From a virus (taxonomy: Duplodnaviria > Heunggongvirae > Uroviricota > Caudoviricetes): 31,289 bases of DNA. Position 1 is the stretch's first letter, and each line of letters opens with the position of its first letter. The stretch is taken from the IMG/VR virus record IMGVR_UViG_2734482594_000020; one strand, 5' to 3'. The translations under genes and the position numbers were made by a program. Below are positions 1-27,551 of the stretch, piece by piece. The notes under the pieces are model-generated. The model saw only the letters and a program-made list of their open reading frames with translations, was not told the DNA's origin and ran no database searches.

Positions 1-573
1 ATGTTTTGCGAAGAAAAAGTAGCTCAAATGGCTGCATACCTACTTCTTAAGCGAGGTGGGCGCATGGCATATCTGAAATTGATGAAGTTGCTCTATCTGT
101 CTAACCGCCAGTCGATTTTGAAGCATGGCAGGATGATCGGCGAAGATAGCCTTTACTCTATGAAATTTGGACCAGTCATGTCGAATACGCTGAACTTGAT
201 TCGCGGTAAGGCTGAAGGCATTGGTGACTACTGGTACAACTTGATAGAGACGAACGGGCATAATGTATCGTTGCGTTCAGATCCGAGGGAAATGGATGCA
301 GACGAGGTCTTTGATGAATTGAGTCGTGCAGATATCCGGATTTTAGATGAAATCTATTCTCGGTATGGGCATATGAACCGATTTGATCTCGCAAATATGA
401 CGCATTTAGAAAGCGTTTGTCCAGAGTGGCACGATCCTGGCAATTCTCGTAAGCCTATAGACCTGAAAGAAATGCTGATCAGTGAGGGTAAAAGCGAGGA
501 TGAGGCTAATCGCATAATTGGCAAAATGGAAGAATCTCAGAAACTTAAGGAATTTTCTTTGCAATTATCATGA
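1..573 (+). CDS. Panacea-domain (DUF4065, GepA/SocA-like) protein, putative antitoxin-type component; N-terminus may be cut by the window edge
   Basis: 190-aa ORF with the 'KLMKLLYL' and 'FGPV' motifs I associate with COG3600/DUF4065 proteins; stop overlaps the start of the next ORF (ATGA at 570-573); region looks AT-richer than the phage backbone by eye. Confidence 0.55.
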   Translation: MFCEEKVAQMAAYLLLKRGGRMAYLKLMKLLYLSNRQSILKHGRMIGEDSLYSMKFGPVMSNTLNLIRGKAEGIGDYWYNLIETNGHNVSLRSDPREMDADEVFDELSRADIRILDEIYSRYGHMNRFDLANMTHLESVCPEWHDPGNSRKPIDLKEMLISEGKSEDEANRIIGKMEESQKLKEFSLQLS

Positions 574-7047: not shown

Positions 7048-7591
7048 GCATCATTGGAAAGTGGAAAAACAACCTGAGTGGTACGTGAAAGCTGTCAGAA
7101 AAACTATCGCGGCATTGCCAGGGGGTTACGCTGAAGCTGCTGACTGGCTGGATGTAACAGAGAACGCTTTATTCAACCGCCTTCGTGCAGATGGCGATCA
7201 GATTTTCCCGTTGGGATGGGCAATGGTTTTACAGCGTGCTGCTGGCAATCACCACATTGCGGATGCTGTCGCACAGTCTGCTGGTGGGGTGTTTGTATCA
7301 CTTCCTGAAATTGAGGAAGTAGAGAACGCCGATATCAACCAGCGCCTGCTGGAGGTCATTGAACAGATCGGCAGTTATTCCAGACAGATTCGTTCAGCAA
7401 TTGAAGACGGTGTAGTGGAACCGCATGAGAAGACAGCAATTAATGATGAATTGTATCTGTCAATTTCGAAGCTCCAGGAGCATGCGGCACTGGTCTACAA
7501 AATTTTCTGCGCTCCAGAAAAGAGTGACGCCCGCGAGTGTGCAGCTCCGGGCGTCGTGGCGTTTTGTGTCTGTGGAGAAACTAACGCATGA
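7040..7591 (+). CDS. CII-like / YdaT-like lysogeny regulator
   Basis: GTG start with AGGAGG 6 nt upstream; the position immediately after cro is typical of the CII(CP76)/YdaT family; assignment by synteny and general resemblance only. Confidence 0.45.
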   Translation: MGKHHWKVEKQPEWYVKAVRKTIAALPGGYAEAADWLDVTENALFNRLRADGDQIFPLGWAMVLQRAAGNHHIADAVAQSAGGVFVSLPEIEEVENADINQRLLEVIEQIGSYSRQIRSAIEDGVVEPHEKTAINDELYLSISKLQEHAALVYKIFCAPEKSDARECAAPGVVAFCVCGETNA

Positions 7592-8736
7592 ACAGTTTAA
7601 CGGCAAATAACCGTTTGTCGCAACAGCTGGTGGTCAGTGTCGCTGCACACCTGTTGTTACGGCATGAATGCAGATTACCAAATCACCTGGCTGTAAGTAA
7701 CCACAGAGAACTTTACCTGACTGTGGGGGGCGAGTTGTGCAGGAACTTAACCGCTGGTTTCGTGACGGAAGAGGACTTTATGTTCATGTTATTCGTTGGG
7801 AGCCAGAAACACAGCGCGTTATCTATCTTCGCAAAGACTACCCGCATGAGTGCTTTAGTCCTTTGTGGAAATTCAGGCGTGATTTTGTTGAGTGTGAAGG
7901 ACCACCAGCACATTGATTCTGCCATTCCGGGCCGTTACACTGTTCAGGCACCTTATAAAGCGGGTGCCGGGATTGGCGTCCTGGAATTGCATACGGCGAC
8001 AATTGGCGCGTTAGCGTCTTTTTTGTTGCTACAACTCAGCTATACCCAAATTATGGTGGGCTGGGTGGGGGCACCGAAAGGTGCGCCGGTTTCCGTATGC
8101 GCCGGTTACGCCAACCCTGCTCAGTTCACCACCAGCGAAATTGGCGTTTCCGGTGGTGGAAGTTATCCATTGCATACGGAGGCTGCCATCATGGCTACGA
8201 TCCCTGCCTTAGTTCAACCTGAACTTTGCATTATTGCAGACAAAGTTGTTACTTCTTCTCTGGCTGTTGCTAGTTATTTCGGCAAACAACACAAAAACGT
8301 CATTCAAAAAATTGCGTCTCTTGAATGCTCTGCCGAATTTACTGAGCTGAATTTCCAGCTCAGTGAGTACATCGACGCATCAGGCCGCAAACTACCTTGC
8401 TATCAAATAACCCGCGACGGCTTTGCGTTTCTTGCTATGGGTTTCACGGGTAAACGTGCTGCCCAGTTCAAAGAGGCATACATCAATGCCTTTAACCAGA
8501 TGGAGAAACAGCTTTCAAAGCCCGCTGTACCGAGCGACGTTGCACATAACGCCAGCGTTCTCTGTTCCTACATTTCATCAATTCATCAGGTCTGGCTGCA
8601 GCAGCTTTATCCTATGTTGGCAAAAGCCGAATCTCCGCTGGCTGTTAGCTTATATGACTATATTAATGATGCTTCGGCGCTGGCCTGCCTCATAAATTTG
8701 TCGCTGAACCCTTCAGAGGTAAGGGGGCGCAAATGA
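7588..8736 (+). CDS. Rha/ORF6N-family phage regulatory protein (domain in residues ~202-300); start uncertain, alternative internal start at 8191
   Basis: 382-codon open frame with ATGA coupling to the upstream gene and GGAG before the ATG at 7588; the Rha-like motif 'SSLAVASYFGKQHKNVIQKI' lies after the internal ATG at 8191, which has its own GGAGG RBS. Confidence 0.5.
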   Translation: MNSLTANNRLSQQLVVSVAAHLLLRHECRLPNHLAVSNHRELYLTVGGELCRNLTAGFVTEEDFMFMLFVGSQKHSALSIFAKTTRMSALVLCGNSGVILLSVKDHQHIDSAIPGRYTVQAPYKAGAGIGVLELHTATIGALASFLLLQLSYTQIMVGWVGAPKGAPVSVCAGYANPAQFTTSEIGVSGGGSYPLHTEAAIMATIPALVQPELCIIADKVVTSSLAVASYFGKQHKNVIQKIASLECSAEFTELNFQLSEYIDASGRKLPCYQITRDGFAFLAMGFTGKRAAQFKEAYINAFNQMEKQLSKPAVPSDVAHNASVLCSYISSIHQVWLQQLYPMLAKAESPLAVSLYDYINDASALACLINLSLNPSEVRGRK

Positions 8737-20645: not shown

Positions 20646-20854
20646 ATCAGAATGATATTGAAGCCATGATTCAGCGTTATACGGAAGCTGAAATGGCGGT
20701 GCTGGACGGAAAATCCGTCACTTTTAATGGTCAGCAGATGACCATGGAAAACTTATCTGAGATCCGGCAGGGGCGGCAGGAGTGGGAGCGCCGCCTTGCG
20801 GCTCTGATTACACGACGACGTGGGCATCCCGGGTACCGGCTGGCGAGGTTCTGA
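20642..20854 (+). CDS. gpW-like head-tail joining protein
   Basis: About 70 aa with C-terminal 'RRRG', between terminase and portal as in lambda; GGAGG before the ATG at 20642. Confidence 0.6.
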   Translation: MNQNDIEAMIQRYTEAEMAVLDGKSVTFNGQQMTMENLSEIRQGRQEWERRLAALITRRRGHPGYRLARF

Positions 20855-22329
20855 TGGCAATTCTTGATGATGTGATTGGCGTTTTTTCACCAGGATGGAA
20901 AGCGGCAAGGCTGCGTTCCCGTGCGGTGATCCAGGCTTATGAGGCCGTAAAAACGACGCGGACACACAAAGCCCGACGGGAGAACCGAACTGCCGACCAG
21001 TTAAGCCAGTACGGGGCCGTGTCGTTACGTGAGCAGGCCCGTTACCTTGATAACAACCACGATCTGGTCATTGGTGTATTTGACAAGCTGGAAGAACGGG
21101 TGGTGGGGAAAAACGGGATTATTGTCGAGCCACATCCGGTATTACGCAATGGGGCCATTGCCCGTGATCTGGCAGCGGAGATACGTACCCGATGGAGTGA
21201 ATGGTCTGTCAGTCCGGAGGTCACCGGGCAGTTTACCCGTCCGATGCTGGAACGTCTGATGCTGCGTACCTGGCTGCGCGATGGTGAGGTGTTTGCCCAG
21301 ATGGTTTCCGGGCGCATAAACAGCCTGACGCCTTCTGCCGGTGTTCATTTCTGGCTGGAGGCGCTCGAGCCGGACTTTATTCCCATGACCAGTGATGAGA
21401 GTAACAGGCTGAATCAGGGCGTGTTTGTTGATGACTGGGGGCGTCCCGAAAAATATCTGGTGTATAAAAGTCGTCCTGTATCCGGACGGCAGATGGAAAC
21501 CAAAGAAGTGGATGCAGAGCGAATGCTGCATCTTAAATTTGTTCGCCGTCTGCACCAGATGCGCGGGACGTCTTTATTGTCCGGTGTGCTGATCCGCCTC
21601 AGCGCCCTGAAAGAGTATGAAGATTCTGAGCTGACTGCAGCAAGGGTCGCCGCTGCTCTGGGGATGTACATCCGCAAAGGCGACGGACAGAGCTATGAAA
21701 CGGATGGTAATTACAGCAAGGAGAATGAACGCGAGCTTACCATTCAGCCAGGCATTATTTACGACGATCTGAAACCCGGCGAAGAAATCGGAATGGTGAA
21801 GTCGGATCGCCCAAATCCTAACCTTGAAACTTTTCGTAATGCTCAGTTGCGTGCCGTGGCGGCGGGCAGTCGTCTGAGTTTTTCCAGTACAGCGCGCAAC
21901 TATAACGGCACTTACAGCGCCCAGCGTCAGGAGCTGGTTGAATCCACTGATGGCTACCTGATCCTGCAGGACTGGTTTATTGGTGCCGTCACCCGCCCGA
22001 TGTATCGTGCCTGGCTGAAACAGGCTGTGGCATCCGGTGTTATCAGGCTACCCCGCGATCTTGACCGTTCTTCACTGTATACCGCGGTGTATTCCGGACC
22101 GGTGATGCCGTGGATTGATCCTGTTAAGGAGGCTGAGGCCTGGAAAATCCAGATTCGTGGTGGAGCGGCGACAGAATCAGACTGGGTACGTGCAGGTGGT
22201 CGTAATCCGGATGATGTCAAACGTCGGCGCAAGGCCGAAATTGATGAAAACCGCAAGCTGGACCTGGTATTTGATACCGATCCGGCCAGTGATAAAGGAG
22301 GCAGCAGTGCCGCAACGAAACGACAGTAG
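20854..22329 (+). CDS. portal protein (lambda gpB family)
   Basis: 491 aa, between W and the capsid protease; ATGA coupling. Confidence 0.75.
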   Translation: MAILDDVIGVFSPGWKAARLRSRAVIQAYEAVKTTRTHKARRENRTADQLSQYGAVSLREQARYLDNNHDLVIGVFDKLEERVVGKNGIIVEPHPVLRNGAIARDLAAEIRTRWSEWSVSPEVTGQFTRPMLERLMLRTWLRDGEVFAQMVSGRINSLTPSAGVHFWLEALEPDFIPMTSDESNRLNQGVFVDDWGRPEKYLVYKSRPVSGRQMETKEVDAERMLHLKFVRRLHQMRGTSLLSGVLIRLSALKEYEDSELTAARVAAALGMYIRKGDGQSYETDGNYSKENERELTIQPGIIYDDLKPGEEIGMVKSDRPNPNLETFRNAQLRAVAAGSRLSFSSTARNYNGTYSAQRQELVESTDGYLILQDWFIGAVTRPMYRAWLKQAVASGVIRLPRDLDRSSLYTAVYSGPVMPWIDPVKEAEAWKIQIRGGAATESDWVRAGGRNPDDVKRRRKAEIDENRKLDLVFDTDPASDKGGSSAATKRQ

Positions 22330-24334
22330 CCGCAGTACACCGACGACCAGTCCGAAGAATAATTCCTGGTTCAGGATGCAGGCTGGTCACCAGAGTGACG
22401 CGGATATTTATATTTATGACGAGATTGGTTTCTGGGGTGTTACAGCGAAGCAGTTTATCAGTGATCTGAATGCACTGGGCGATATCACCCACATTAATCT
22501 CCATATCAATTCACCGGGTGGCGATGTCTTTGAAGGCATCGCCATTTTTAATGCGCTGAAAACACATGGTGCGTCCATTACCGTTTATGTCGACGGTGTG
22601 GCGGCATCAATGGCGTCGGTCATTGCGATGGTGGGAAACCCGGTCATTATGCCGGAAAACACCTTCATGATGATTCATAAACCATTTGGCTTTACGGGCG
22701 GTGATGCGGAGGACATGCGCACCTATGCCGACCTGCTCGATAAAGTTGAGGCGGTTCTGTTACCCGCTTATGCACAGAAAACCGGGAAAACCACCGATGA
22801 AATTGCTGCCATGCTGGCGGATGAGACCTGGATGTCCGGTGCCGAATGTCTGGCACAGGGATTTGCTGATCAGGTGACGCCAGCCGTTAAGGCAATGGCA
22901 TGTATTCAGTCAAAACGTACAGAGGAATTTAAAAAGATGCCGGAATACATTCGAAACATGATTACTCCGCCACGCAACAGTGCTCCACGCGTACAGGATA
23001 ATGAACCTGCAGCTTCCCGGACGCCAGTGCAGGCAGCAGCACCCGTGGTGGATGAAAACAGTATCCGTGCGCAGGTACTGGCAGAGCAAAAAGCGCGTGT
23101 AAACGGTATTAATGATCTGTTTGCCATGTTTGGCGGGCGTTATCAGACGCTGCAGGCTCAGTGTCTTGCCGATCCTGAATGTTCGCTGGAGCAGGCCCGC
23201 GAAAAGCTGTTGAACGAGATGGGGCGCGAGTCCACGCCATCCAATAAAAATACCCCGGCTCATATTTATGCCGGTAACGGTAATTTTGTGGGGGACGGGA
23301 TCCGCCAGGCGCTGATGGCGCGTGCCGGATTTGAAAAAACCGAACGTGATAATGTCTACAACGGGATGACCCTGCGTGAATATGCCCGTATGTCACTGAC
23401 TGAACGGGGTATTGGGGTTTCCAGTTATAACCCGATGCAGATGGTCGGTGCGGCGTTCACACACAGTACGTCTGACTTCGGTAATATTCTGCTGGATGTT
23501 GCGAACAAAGCCATTCTGCAGGGCTGGGAAGATGCCCCTGAAACCTATGAACAGTGGACGCGGAAAGGTCAGTTGTCTGATTTTAAAATTGCCCATCGTG
23601 TGGGTATGGGGGGCTTCAGTGCTCTGCGTCAGGTGCGTGAAGGGGCGGAATATAAATACGTTACCACCGGAGATAAACAGGCCACTATTGCACTGGCGAC
23701 CTATGGCGAGCTGTTCAGTATCACCCGTCAGGCCATTATCAATGATGATCTGAATATGCTGACCGATGTCCCGATGAAACTGGGCCGTGCGGCGAAATCC
23801 ACTATTGCCGATCTGGTTTATGCCATTCTGACGTCTAACCCGAAAATCTCCACAGATAATGTAAGTCTGTTCGATAAAGCGAAACATGCAAACGTACTGG
23901 AGAGCGCTGCAATGGACGTGGCATCGCTGGATAAAGCCCGCCAGTTGATGCGCGTTCAGAAAGAGGGTGAGCGTCATCTGAATATTCGTCCTGCGTTCGT
24001 ACTGGTACCGACGGCGATGGAGTCTGTTGCTAACCAGGTCATTCGCTCCTCAAGTGTCAAGGGGGCTGACATTAACGCCGGTATTATTAACCCGGTGAAA
24101 GATTTTGCGACCGTTATTGCAGAGCCTCGTCTTGATGATAACAGCCAGACCACCTTCTACCTGGCTGCGTCCAAAGGCTCCGATACGATTGAAGTGGCTT
24201 ATCTCAACGGTGTGGATACGCCATATATTGATCAGATGGAGGGCTTCAGTGTGGATGGCGTGACAACGAAAGTGCGTATTGACGCCGGTGTCGCGCCAGT
24301 TGATCACCGCGGTCTGGTGAAATGTACGGCGTAA
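22307..24334 (+). CDS. tripartite capsid gene: ClpP-like prohead protease, scaffold and major capsid protein in one ORF (Gifsy-2 type)
   Basis: N-terminal ClpP/S14-like region ('INSPGGDVFEGIAIFNA...MIHKP'), a charged middle segment and a large C-terminal capsid-like domain; GTG at 22307 with AAGGAGG 5 nt upstream. Confidence 0.75.
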   Translation: MPQRNDSSRSTPTTSPKNNSWFRMQAGHQSDADIYIYDEIGFWGVTAKQFISDLNALGDITHINLHINSPGGDVFEGIAIFNALKTHGASITVYVDGVAASMASVIAMVGNPVIMPENTFMMIHKPFGFTGGDAEDMRTYADLLDKVEAVLLPAYAQKTGKTTDEIAAMLADETWMSGAECLAQGFADQVTPAVKAMACIQSKRTEEFKKMPEYIRNMITPPRNSAPRVQDNEPAASRTPVQAAAPVVDENSIRAQVLAEQKARVNGINDLFAMFGGRYQTLQAQCLADPECSLEQAREKLLNEMGRESTPSNKNTPAHIYAGNGNFVGDGIRQALMARAGFEKTERDNVYNGMTLREYARMSLTERGIGVSSYNPMQMVGAAFTHSTSDFGNILLDVANKAILQGWEDAPETYEQWTRKGQLSDFKIAHRVGMGGFSALRQVREGAEYKYVTTGDKQATIALATYGELFSITRQAIINDDLNMLTDVPMKLGRAAKSTIADLVYAILTSNPKISTDNVSLFDKAKHANVLESAAMDVASLDKARQLMRVQKEGERHLNIRPAFVLVPTAMESVANQVIRSSSVKGADINAGIINPVKDFATVIAEPRLDDNSQTTFYLAASKGSDTIEVAYLNGVDTPYIDQMEGFSVDGVTTKVRIDAGVAPVDHRGLVKCTA

Positions 24335-24356: not shown

Positions 24357-24377
24357 TGGCCCGTAAGGGCTTTTTTT
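24357..24377 (+). terminator. rho-independent terminator after the capsid gene
   Basis: GCCC-gtaa-GGGC followed by TTTTTTT; a second hairpin without a U-run follows at 24389-24407. Confidence 0.6.
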
Positions 24378-24420
24378 GTACCTGAAATCAGCCCCTGAAC
24401 GGGGCTGTGCGGAGACAGTT

Positions 24421-24744
24421 ATGGCAAAGAATTTTGTAGAAGAAGGAAAAACGGTGGCGATTGTTGCCAGTGCAGCCATCAGCAGCGGAGATCTGGTGCA
24501 GGTGGGTGATGTTTTTGCGGTAGCGCTGACCGATATTCCACAGGGTGAAACAGGCGACGGCCTGACCGAAGGTGTGTTTATGCTGCCTAAGCTGAAAACG
24601 GATGACATGAAAACGGGTAAGAAGGTTTATCTGAAGTCCGGAAAAGTTCAGTTGACTAACAGCGGCTCTGATCCGCTGGTCGGGGTTGTCTGGGCAGATG
24701 CCGGAACCAGTGCAGAAGAAGTGCCGGTAAAACTCAATGTCTGA
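24421..24744 (+). CDS. DUF2190-like small head protein (possible decoration/cement protein)
   Basis: 107 aa immediately after the capsid gene; RBS GGAGA; family assignment from memory. Confidence 0.45.
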   Translation: MAKNFVEEGKTVAIVASAAISSGDLVQVGDVFAVALTDIPQGETGDGLTEGVFMLPKLKTDDMKTGKKVYLKSGKVQLTNSGSDPLVGVVWADAGTSAEEVPVKLNV

Positions 24745-26826: not shown

Positions 26827-27213
26827 ATGTTTCTGAAACAGGGCACGTTTAATTATGAAAAACAGTCCGTGGTGCTCAGTGAGCTGTCCGGGCTGCAGAG
26901 AATTGAATATCTGGCGTTTGTTCAGCAGCGAACGGCAAAGTTTGATGCCGGGGAGGGAGAACTGCCGGAGGCTGAACGACAGATTGCTTTTCTGCGGATG
27001 GGGATGGATATCAATGCCTGGCTGGTTTCCCGCTCACTGTGGAATGCGGATCAGTCTAAGGATGTAGAGACGCTTTGCGCATCCGTTATTACAACATGGT
27101 CGTATGATGCCCTGGGTGCGGGGGCGGAGATGGTTCTGTCGCTGAGCGGTATGGGGGCCATTGATAATGCCGGGGATGATGAGCATGAGGCGCTGACGCC
27201 GGAAAAGTCCTGA
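26827..27213 (+). CDS. G: tail assembly chaperone G
   Basis: 'MFLKQG...VVLSELSGLQRIEYLA' parallels lambda gpG. Confidence 0.85.
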   Translation: MFLKQGTFNYEKQSVVLSELSGLQRIEYLAFVQQRTAKFDAGEGELPEAERQIAFLRMGMDINAWLVSRSLWNADQSKDVETLCASVITTWSYDALGAGAEMVLSLSGMGAIDNAGDDEHEALTPEKS

Positions 27214-27551
27214 CGCGGGAAATGCAGTTTGTCATGCGGCTTGCCCGGGAGTTCCGGCGGGCAGACTGGCGGCGGATGCTGTCGGAAATGTCGGCCACTG
27301 AGCTTGGTGAGTGGGGCGATTATTTCCGGATGCAGAGCTTCAGTGATGTGTGGATGGATGCGCAGTTTGCCTCGCTGAAGGCATTGATCGTGAGAATGGT
27401 GTCCGGCAGCAGTGATGCTGCGGTGGCTGATTTCAGCCTTTTACCGGAAGAGAACGGGATACCGGAGCGAACGGACGAAGAACTGATGCATCTTGGAGAA
27501 GGTATTTCCGGAGGTGTGCGTTATGGACCAGATAGCCAACCTGGTCATTGA
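27189..27551 (+). CDS. T: T-frame segment of the G-T tail assembly chaperone, reached by a -1 frameshift near 27201-27207
   Basis: -1 frame open from 27189 to 27551 overlapping the end of G; heptamer GGAAAAG at the position of lambda's GGGAAAG slip site. Confidence 0.6.
   Translation, partial: GADAGKVLTREMQFVMRLAREFRRADWRRMLSEMSATELGEWGDYFRMQSFSDVWMDAQFASLKALIVRMVSGSSDAAVADFSLLPEENGIPERTDEELMHLGEGISGGVRYGPDSQPGH

Follow-up and report, generated by a model that had tools for sequence, protein, structure and literature searches.

Several described phages combine head functions in one gene. The scaffold of HK97 is fused to the capsid protein, and in phage lambda the protease is fused to the scaffold (PMC8508860). 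The prohead protease and coat genes of Gifsy-2 are fused (PMC12315714, citing Effantin et al. 2010), and relatives with such heads have lambda-like tails (PMC12315714). Similarly, gp5 of Pseudomonas phage MD8, named 'protease and major capsid protein', was published as one gene for the protease, the scaffold and the capsid protein (PMC8508860). Here we describe a gene of this kind at positions 22307-24334 (+ strand) of a 31,289-nucleotide (nt) stretch of caudoviricete DNA, IMG/VR record IMGVR_UViG_2734482594_000020, which we call the window. With a probability of about 0.9, this is the single head-shell gene of a lambdoid phage of the mEp460/cdtI/Gifsy-2 type, whose product would assemble and process itself as set out below.

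The same logic underlies the head genes of HK97 (gp4/gp5) and lambda (C/Nu3/E), where a protease inside the procapsid removes an internal scaffold from an HK97-fold shell. In contrast, all three parts are fused in the window and the protease is ClpP/S14-like, not of the lambda S49 type. An HK97-style separate protease gene is not present, and BLASTP gave no detectable match between the window proteins and lambda C, Nu3, D or E. The Gifsy-2 protein STM1034.3n (NC_010393) is 70% identical in amino acids (aa) over 669 aa and has the same order of ClpP-like protease, middle segment and capsid part in one open reading frame (ORF); it differs in its annotated length of 696 aa, its N-terminal leader and its linkers. 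A further full-length homologue is MD8 gp5, which shares 57% identity across 97% of the query but comes from another host and has more divergent linkers.

By translation, the gene has 675 aa plus the stop, which makes 676 codons without an internal stop, and its boundaries are identical to those of the PGAP coding sequence (CDS) in NZ_CM125652. The intact ORF reported in an earlier note on this DNA is thus upheld, and PGAP names its product 'ClpP-like prohead protease/major capsid protein fusion protein'. Curated models cover nearly all of the protein: aa 32-674 align with profile positions 2-651/652 of NCBIfam NF045540 (984.6 bits, cutoff 475), and PHROG phrog_133 is matched at 1199 bits over profile positions 3-667/668. 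The N-terminal part matches Pfam CLP_protease (aa 31-191, E 4e-36) and NF045542, 'head maturation protease, ClpP-related' (216 bits, cutoff 120), while the C-terminal part matches Phage_capsid_4 (aa 378-672, E 2e-54), with Mu-like_gpT as a secondary match. The Pfam E-values rule out chance matches, and the domain search supports both the protease and the capsid-like domain that the note had proposed, as well as its comparison with the three-part fusion of Gifsy-2. Capsid-fold matches of the C-terminal domain align over 223-236 residues; against the PDB, phmmer gave the capsid part weak Mu GpT-type matches only (E 2e-4).

An AlphaFold2 model built on 56 homologues (mean predicted local distance difference test score, pLDDT, 76.7) consists of confident domains with low-confidence linkers between them. 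Conservation was read from an alignment of 45 diverse members at 34-69% identity (alignment A1) and from a second alignment of 56 sequences (A2). The layout of the gene is as follows:

22307..24334, + strand: ClpP-like prohead protease/scaffold-like segment/major capsid protein fusion gene (Pfam, NF045540, phrog_133)
22307..22366, + strand: variable N-terminal leader, aa 1-20, predicted disordered (pLDDT <50; gap fraction 0.67 for aa 1-15)
22367..22897, + strand: ClpP-fold serine protease domain, aa 21-197 (model confident over aa 22-191)
22898..23053, + strand: linker 1, aa 198-249, Pro/Ala-rich, predicted disordered (pLDDT <50 at aa 198-201 and 219-247)
23054..23227, + strand: conserved three-helix segment, aa 250-307, a putative scaffold/delta-like domain (model and alignment)
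23228..23284, + strand: linker 2, aa 308-326, predicted disordered (pLDDT <50 at aa 309-325; indel-rich in alignment A1)
23285..24331, + strand: HK97-fold major capsid domain, aa 327-675 (model confident from aa 327)

The protease domain begins with Trp21, which directly follows the leader and is invariant in alignment A2. PDB ClpP chains align with aa 54-196 with their Ser and His motifs in register. The hallmark of the family at its N terminus, a ClpP (S14) fold that carries the catalytic Ser and His, is found here. Ser101 (codon 22607-22609), His124 (codon 22676-22678), Met122 and the glycines G71 and G72, which correspond to the ClpP oxyanion glycines, are invariant in the 45 members of alignment A1. 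As judged from these alignments, the presence of a Ser-His pair is certain. Glu173 (22823-22825) aligns with ClpP Asp171; the third member of the triad is uncertain because this position is not invariant. The invariance of Ser101 and His124 makes self-processing in head maturation, which the note had predicted, a sound and reasonable expectation. In the capsid domain, the model predicts an E-loop at about aa 419-473 and a long spine helix at aa 487-510.

The middle of the protein had been described as a charged central segment. This holds weakly, since the charged fraction of aa 192-377 is 0.24 (net charge +3), compared with 0.18 in the protease and 0.22 in the capsid part; conservation and the model would describe it better as two low-confidence, poorly conserved linkers around a conserved three-helix block. 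Conservation is lowest in linker 1 (entropy 2.7-3.15 bits), which holds a semi-conserved F-x-x-x-P motif and Met211. The predicted helices span aa 250-273, 280-288 and 294-307, with block-mean pLDDT values of 77-87, and Arg264 within them is invariant in the 45-member alignment.

The sister family NF045541, 'prohead protease/major capsid protein fusion protein', bears on the role of this block. Its member from Ralstonia phage YO122_2 (ORF L007:1829-3922, 697 aa, 744 bits) shares only aa ~223-675 of the window protein, and its N-terminal ~220 residues form another domain with no ClpP match, or any other match, in Pfam. The window protein itself scores 399.7 bits against NF045541, under the cutoff of 525. 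In addition, cluster representatives of 443 and 468 aa (P0166 and P0231), which may or may not be complete genes, have the central and capsid parts only. The central segment thus moves with the capsid domain and not with the protease, since both NF045541 and the 443-468 aa forms keep the two together; the HK97 delta domain behaves likewise. This supports by analogy, without proving it, that the three-helix segment is a scaffold or HK97 delta-like domain, and these comparisons suggest that different proteases were repeatedly fused to one scaffold-capsid unit.

The surroundings of the gene are also those of Gifsy-2. Both phages have a lambda-family terminase, a small adaptor, the portal, the fusion gene, a DUF2190-type decoration gene and a tail in the order Z-U-V-G-T-H-M, and all late genes from the small terminase subunit to tail M have their best match in Gifsy-2, collinearly and at 39-73% identity (64% for the portal and 39-68% for the tail genes). 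The window tail contains the lambda tail families in that order (Pfam Minor_tail_Z, Phage_tail_U, Phage_TTP_12, TMP_2 and Tape_meas_lam_C). However, the claim that its genes are near-identical to lambda is wrong: the lambda tail proteins show 25-56% aa identity, and the DNA matches are patches at 65-73% plus one 41-base match at 85%. The lambda terminase large subunit and portal are 22-24% identical to those of the window. The late region likewise does not document the module mosaicism that had been read into it; there is no new joint between head and tail, because the head and tail genes already stand in this order in Gifsy-2. On sequence comparison, this head-plus-tail combination is the ordinary state of the mEp460/cdtI/phi458 lineage.

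That lineage supplies the nearest relatives of the gene, whose DNA is 98.4-99.4% identical to that of phi458, cdtI, mEp460, PhiR40_1/R55_1, Ayreon, Tritos and HannyBb; the phi458 gene aligns without gaps at 99.4%. The gene works in viable phages, because phi458, mEp460, Ayreon and Tritos, to which it is 99% identical in DNA, are plaque-forming or isolated phages. The late regions of mEp460, cdtI, phi458, Ayreon, Tritos and PhiR55_1 are 95.5-98.8% identical to that of the window and show point differences only; in mEp460 and PhiR55_1 most of the early region matches too. For most of its length, the whole window shares 96-98% identity with mEp460, cdtI and PhiR55_1. It effectively belongs, by sequence, to the mEp460/cdtI/phi458 phage group. 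Several Shiga toxin (Stx)-converting phages have a gene with about 78% DNA identity, and in VT1-Sakai the homologue is disrupted by IS629.

Of 5426 complete Escherichia coli genomes, 2135 (about 40%) contain similar DNA, whose annotation uses the fusion-protein name. One protein cluster with the 675-aa architecture (P0016) has 8230 member sequences on its own, and a search of 1.84 billion cluster representatives gave 7014 matches at E <= 1e-30. Among the 150 best representatives (clusters at 50% identity), more than 100 are 640-740 aa long and match aa ~20-672 at 35-60% identity. The fusion gene is among the commonest head genes of E. coli prophages, and it is ordinary and already catalogued. 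The same gene goes under several names in public records, such as 'putative protease', 'head-tail preconnector protein Nu3', 'Major head protein' and 'head maturation protease' (for example in OP434518, which is phi458, PV340560, LR595868 and AP000400).

We propose the following scheme for the single head-shell gene. Translation would begin at GTG 22307 in coupling with the 3' end of the portal gene. Starting from the portal, the full-length protein would co-assemble to a T=7 procapsid whose protease and helical parts point inward, and the helical part would act as the delta domain does in HK97 or Nu3 in lambda. The protease domains, crowded together, would then remove all parts N-terminal to the capsid domain (~310-375 residues), most probably by a cut in or near the linker at aa 308-326. 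The fragments would exit, the shell would expand as DNA is packaged, and trimers of the decoration protein (24421-24744) would cement the expanded shell. The cleavage site is not derivable from the sequence, which sets bounds from about aa 200, the end of the protease fold, to about aa 419, the start of the E-loop; in the model, the disordered stretch at aa 309-325 appears to be the best candidate. In the work of Effantin et al. 2010 (Virology 402:355), Gifsy-2 capsids were reportedly T=7, and the HK97 capsid protein and lambda gpD were used to model them. Our literature search found no processing data.

Some points weigh against this scheme. We infer where the protein is cut, which form of it assembles and what becomes of the protease, and the position of ClpP Asp171, mostly Glu, is Val or Thr in a few of the 45 members. 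Moreover, by our own rough estimate, 415 copies of an internal part of ~36 kDa would take up about half of the interior of a T=7 procapsid. With such tight crowding, the protein could be processed before assembly or while it proceeds, or a shorter co-product could exist, and a protease-free form becomes attractive. We consider it quite unlikely that the gene also supplies such a form, from a start at Met211 or by early self-cleavage in linker 1, instead of just 415 identical full-length subunits. The version with two products in the manner of lambda C/Nu3, where an internal start at Met211 (ATG 22937) would give a 465-aa scaffold-capsid form and leave the protease on a minority of subunits, we regard as quite improbable. 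That ATG lies directly past the protease domain with AGGA 10 nt upstream, its K-R-x-(E/Q)-E-F-x-x-M-P context recurs in an Stx2d phage, Gifsy-2 and MD8, preceded at 9-10 nt by AGGA or AGGAG, so that four lineages share it, and there are the representatives of 443-468 aa with the central and capsid parts only. However, the AGGA is an automatic result of conserved Glu-Glu or Gln-Glu codons, a spacing of 9-10 nt to the ATG is long, and Met211 is mostly Ala, Ile, Pro or Val in the 45 members, although the adjacent Pro212 is conserved. With the methionine unconserved, a family-wide start at this position is unsupported, and we keep it solely as a low-probability option for the enterobacterial/Pseudomonas subgroup. 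A search of the literature found no report of a protease-free nested form in enterobacterial members.

The variable third triad position could also be taken to mean that the ClpP-like domain has lost catalysis and serves as a structural or scaffold module, with maturation by a host protease or none at all. This is highly improbable: all 45 members, down to 34% identity, retain the oxyanion-hole glycines, Ser101 and His124, the NF045542 match lies well above its cutoff, and in many phages a standalone homologue is annotated as the capsid maturation protease. Even less weight can be given to the idea that the single ORF is an artefact, in which a frameshift, a sequencing error or a pseudogene joins separate protease and capsid genes. 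Errors of this sort do occur in the region, as more than 10 singleton ORFs of 1158-1159 aa that join portal, protease and capsid show. Yet the 675-aa architecture is the norm in its cluster, in the E. coli genomes and in the more than 100 full-length clusters described above, two curated full-length models (NF045540 and phrog_133) are built on it, and the phi458 gene aligns without a gap. These comparative data refute an artefactual ORF, and the check for a splitting frameshift or sequencing error that the earlier note had called for came out in favour of the intact gene.

The neighbours of the fusion gene are these:

20854..22329, + strand: portal gene, lambda-family (Pfam Phage_portal_2, E 5e-82; mapped from PGAP CDS L001:4740-6215)
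22295..22301, + strand: Shine-Dalgarno sequence AAGGAGG, within the 3' end of the portal gene (sequence read, Shine-Dalgarno scan)
24358..24378, + strand: terminator-like hairpin GGCCCGTAAGGGC followed by a run of seven T, 24 nt past the stop codon (consensus scan, sequence read)
24421..24744, + strand: head decoration (cement) gene, capsid partner (Pfam Phage_cement_2, E 4e-20; phrog_122 'head decoration'; PGAP start)

As is typical of NF045540 proteins, an uninterrupted ORF in the range of ~650-700 aa lies between the portal end at 22329 and the decoration start at 24421, and there is no separate scaffold, protease or capsid gene between the two. The 3' end of the portal gene overlaps the start of the fusion gene by 23 nt, and because of this overlap the reading frame is open from 22115. 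A perfect AAGGAGG, a 5-nt spacer and GTG 22307 follow one another; the same context is found in an Stx2d phage, and PGAP also places the start of the identical CDS in E. coli ZH177 at the GTG. The phi458 CDS is annotated from the ATG equivalent to 22376 and excludes Trp21. We rejected this ATG, which has no Shine-Dalgarno site and would lose the invariant tryptophan, and reading the sequence showed no start codon between GTG 22307 and ATG 22376. On these signals, GTG 22307 is the correct start, and the overlap of the start and the Shine-Dalgarno site with the portal gene suggests coupled translation of the two genes.

The singleton ORFs mentioned above, found among the proteins P0006-P0017, P0043 and P0070 from public databases, run from the portal gene into the protease-capsid gene. 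Because the junction differs in each of them, they go back to independent 1-nt deletions within 22115-22329, where both frames are open. Programmed recoding from the portal into the fusion gene was rejected on the same ground, and the singletons are sequencing errors or decaying prophages.

Downstream, the decoration protein is 60% identical to Gifsy-2 STM1034, and Gifsy-2 is listed with the phages whose cement protein is trimeric and sits at the 3-fold axes (PMC8538268). A second hairpin at 24390-24408 (+ strand), with a 7-bp stem CAGCCCC/GGGGCTG, lies directly before the Shine-Dalgarno site of the decoration gene. The two hairpins between the fusion and decoration genes (24358-24378 and 24390-24408) might tune the ratio of capsid to decoration protein expression.

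Elsewhere in the window, the ORF of the tail chaperone G ends at 27213 (…CCG GAA AAG TCC TGA) and that of T starts at 27222 (+ strand). At the junction of G and T (27195-27225) we see no canonical slippery heptamer of the lambda type (G GGA AAG), though a G-T frameshift product is expected in the family. Rfam gives gathering-level matches to isrK (7948-8024) and to C4 antisense RNA (8049-8136, + strand), both within an ORF at 7588-8736; Pfam assigns Phage_ASH (aa 117-212) and Phage_pRha matches to its product. From these matches, 7948-8136 looks like a P1/Gifsy-1-style antirepressor region under antisense-RNA control; the Phage_ASH match overlaps the RNA genes, so that either the protein or the RNA annotation may be spurious. 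The ORF at 1-573 (+ strand), at the window's edge, has a SocA/Panacea antitoxin domain (E 2e-19) and is overlapped by a 139-aa ORF at 570-989 with no Pfam match, so positions 1-989 may hold a Panacea-type toxin-antitoxin pair. A scan of the window for transfer RNA genes found none.

The architecture of the gene was described experimentally for Gifsy-2 in 2010 and is covered by curated NCBIfam and PHROG models, and the finding has little importance past correct annotation: the gene should carry the name of a protease/capsid fusion in public records. If a protease-free form were indeed made, the Met211 start or cleavage in linker 1 would set the dose of protease per procapsid, a hidden nested arrangement like that of lambda C/Nu3.

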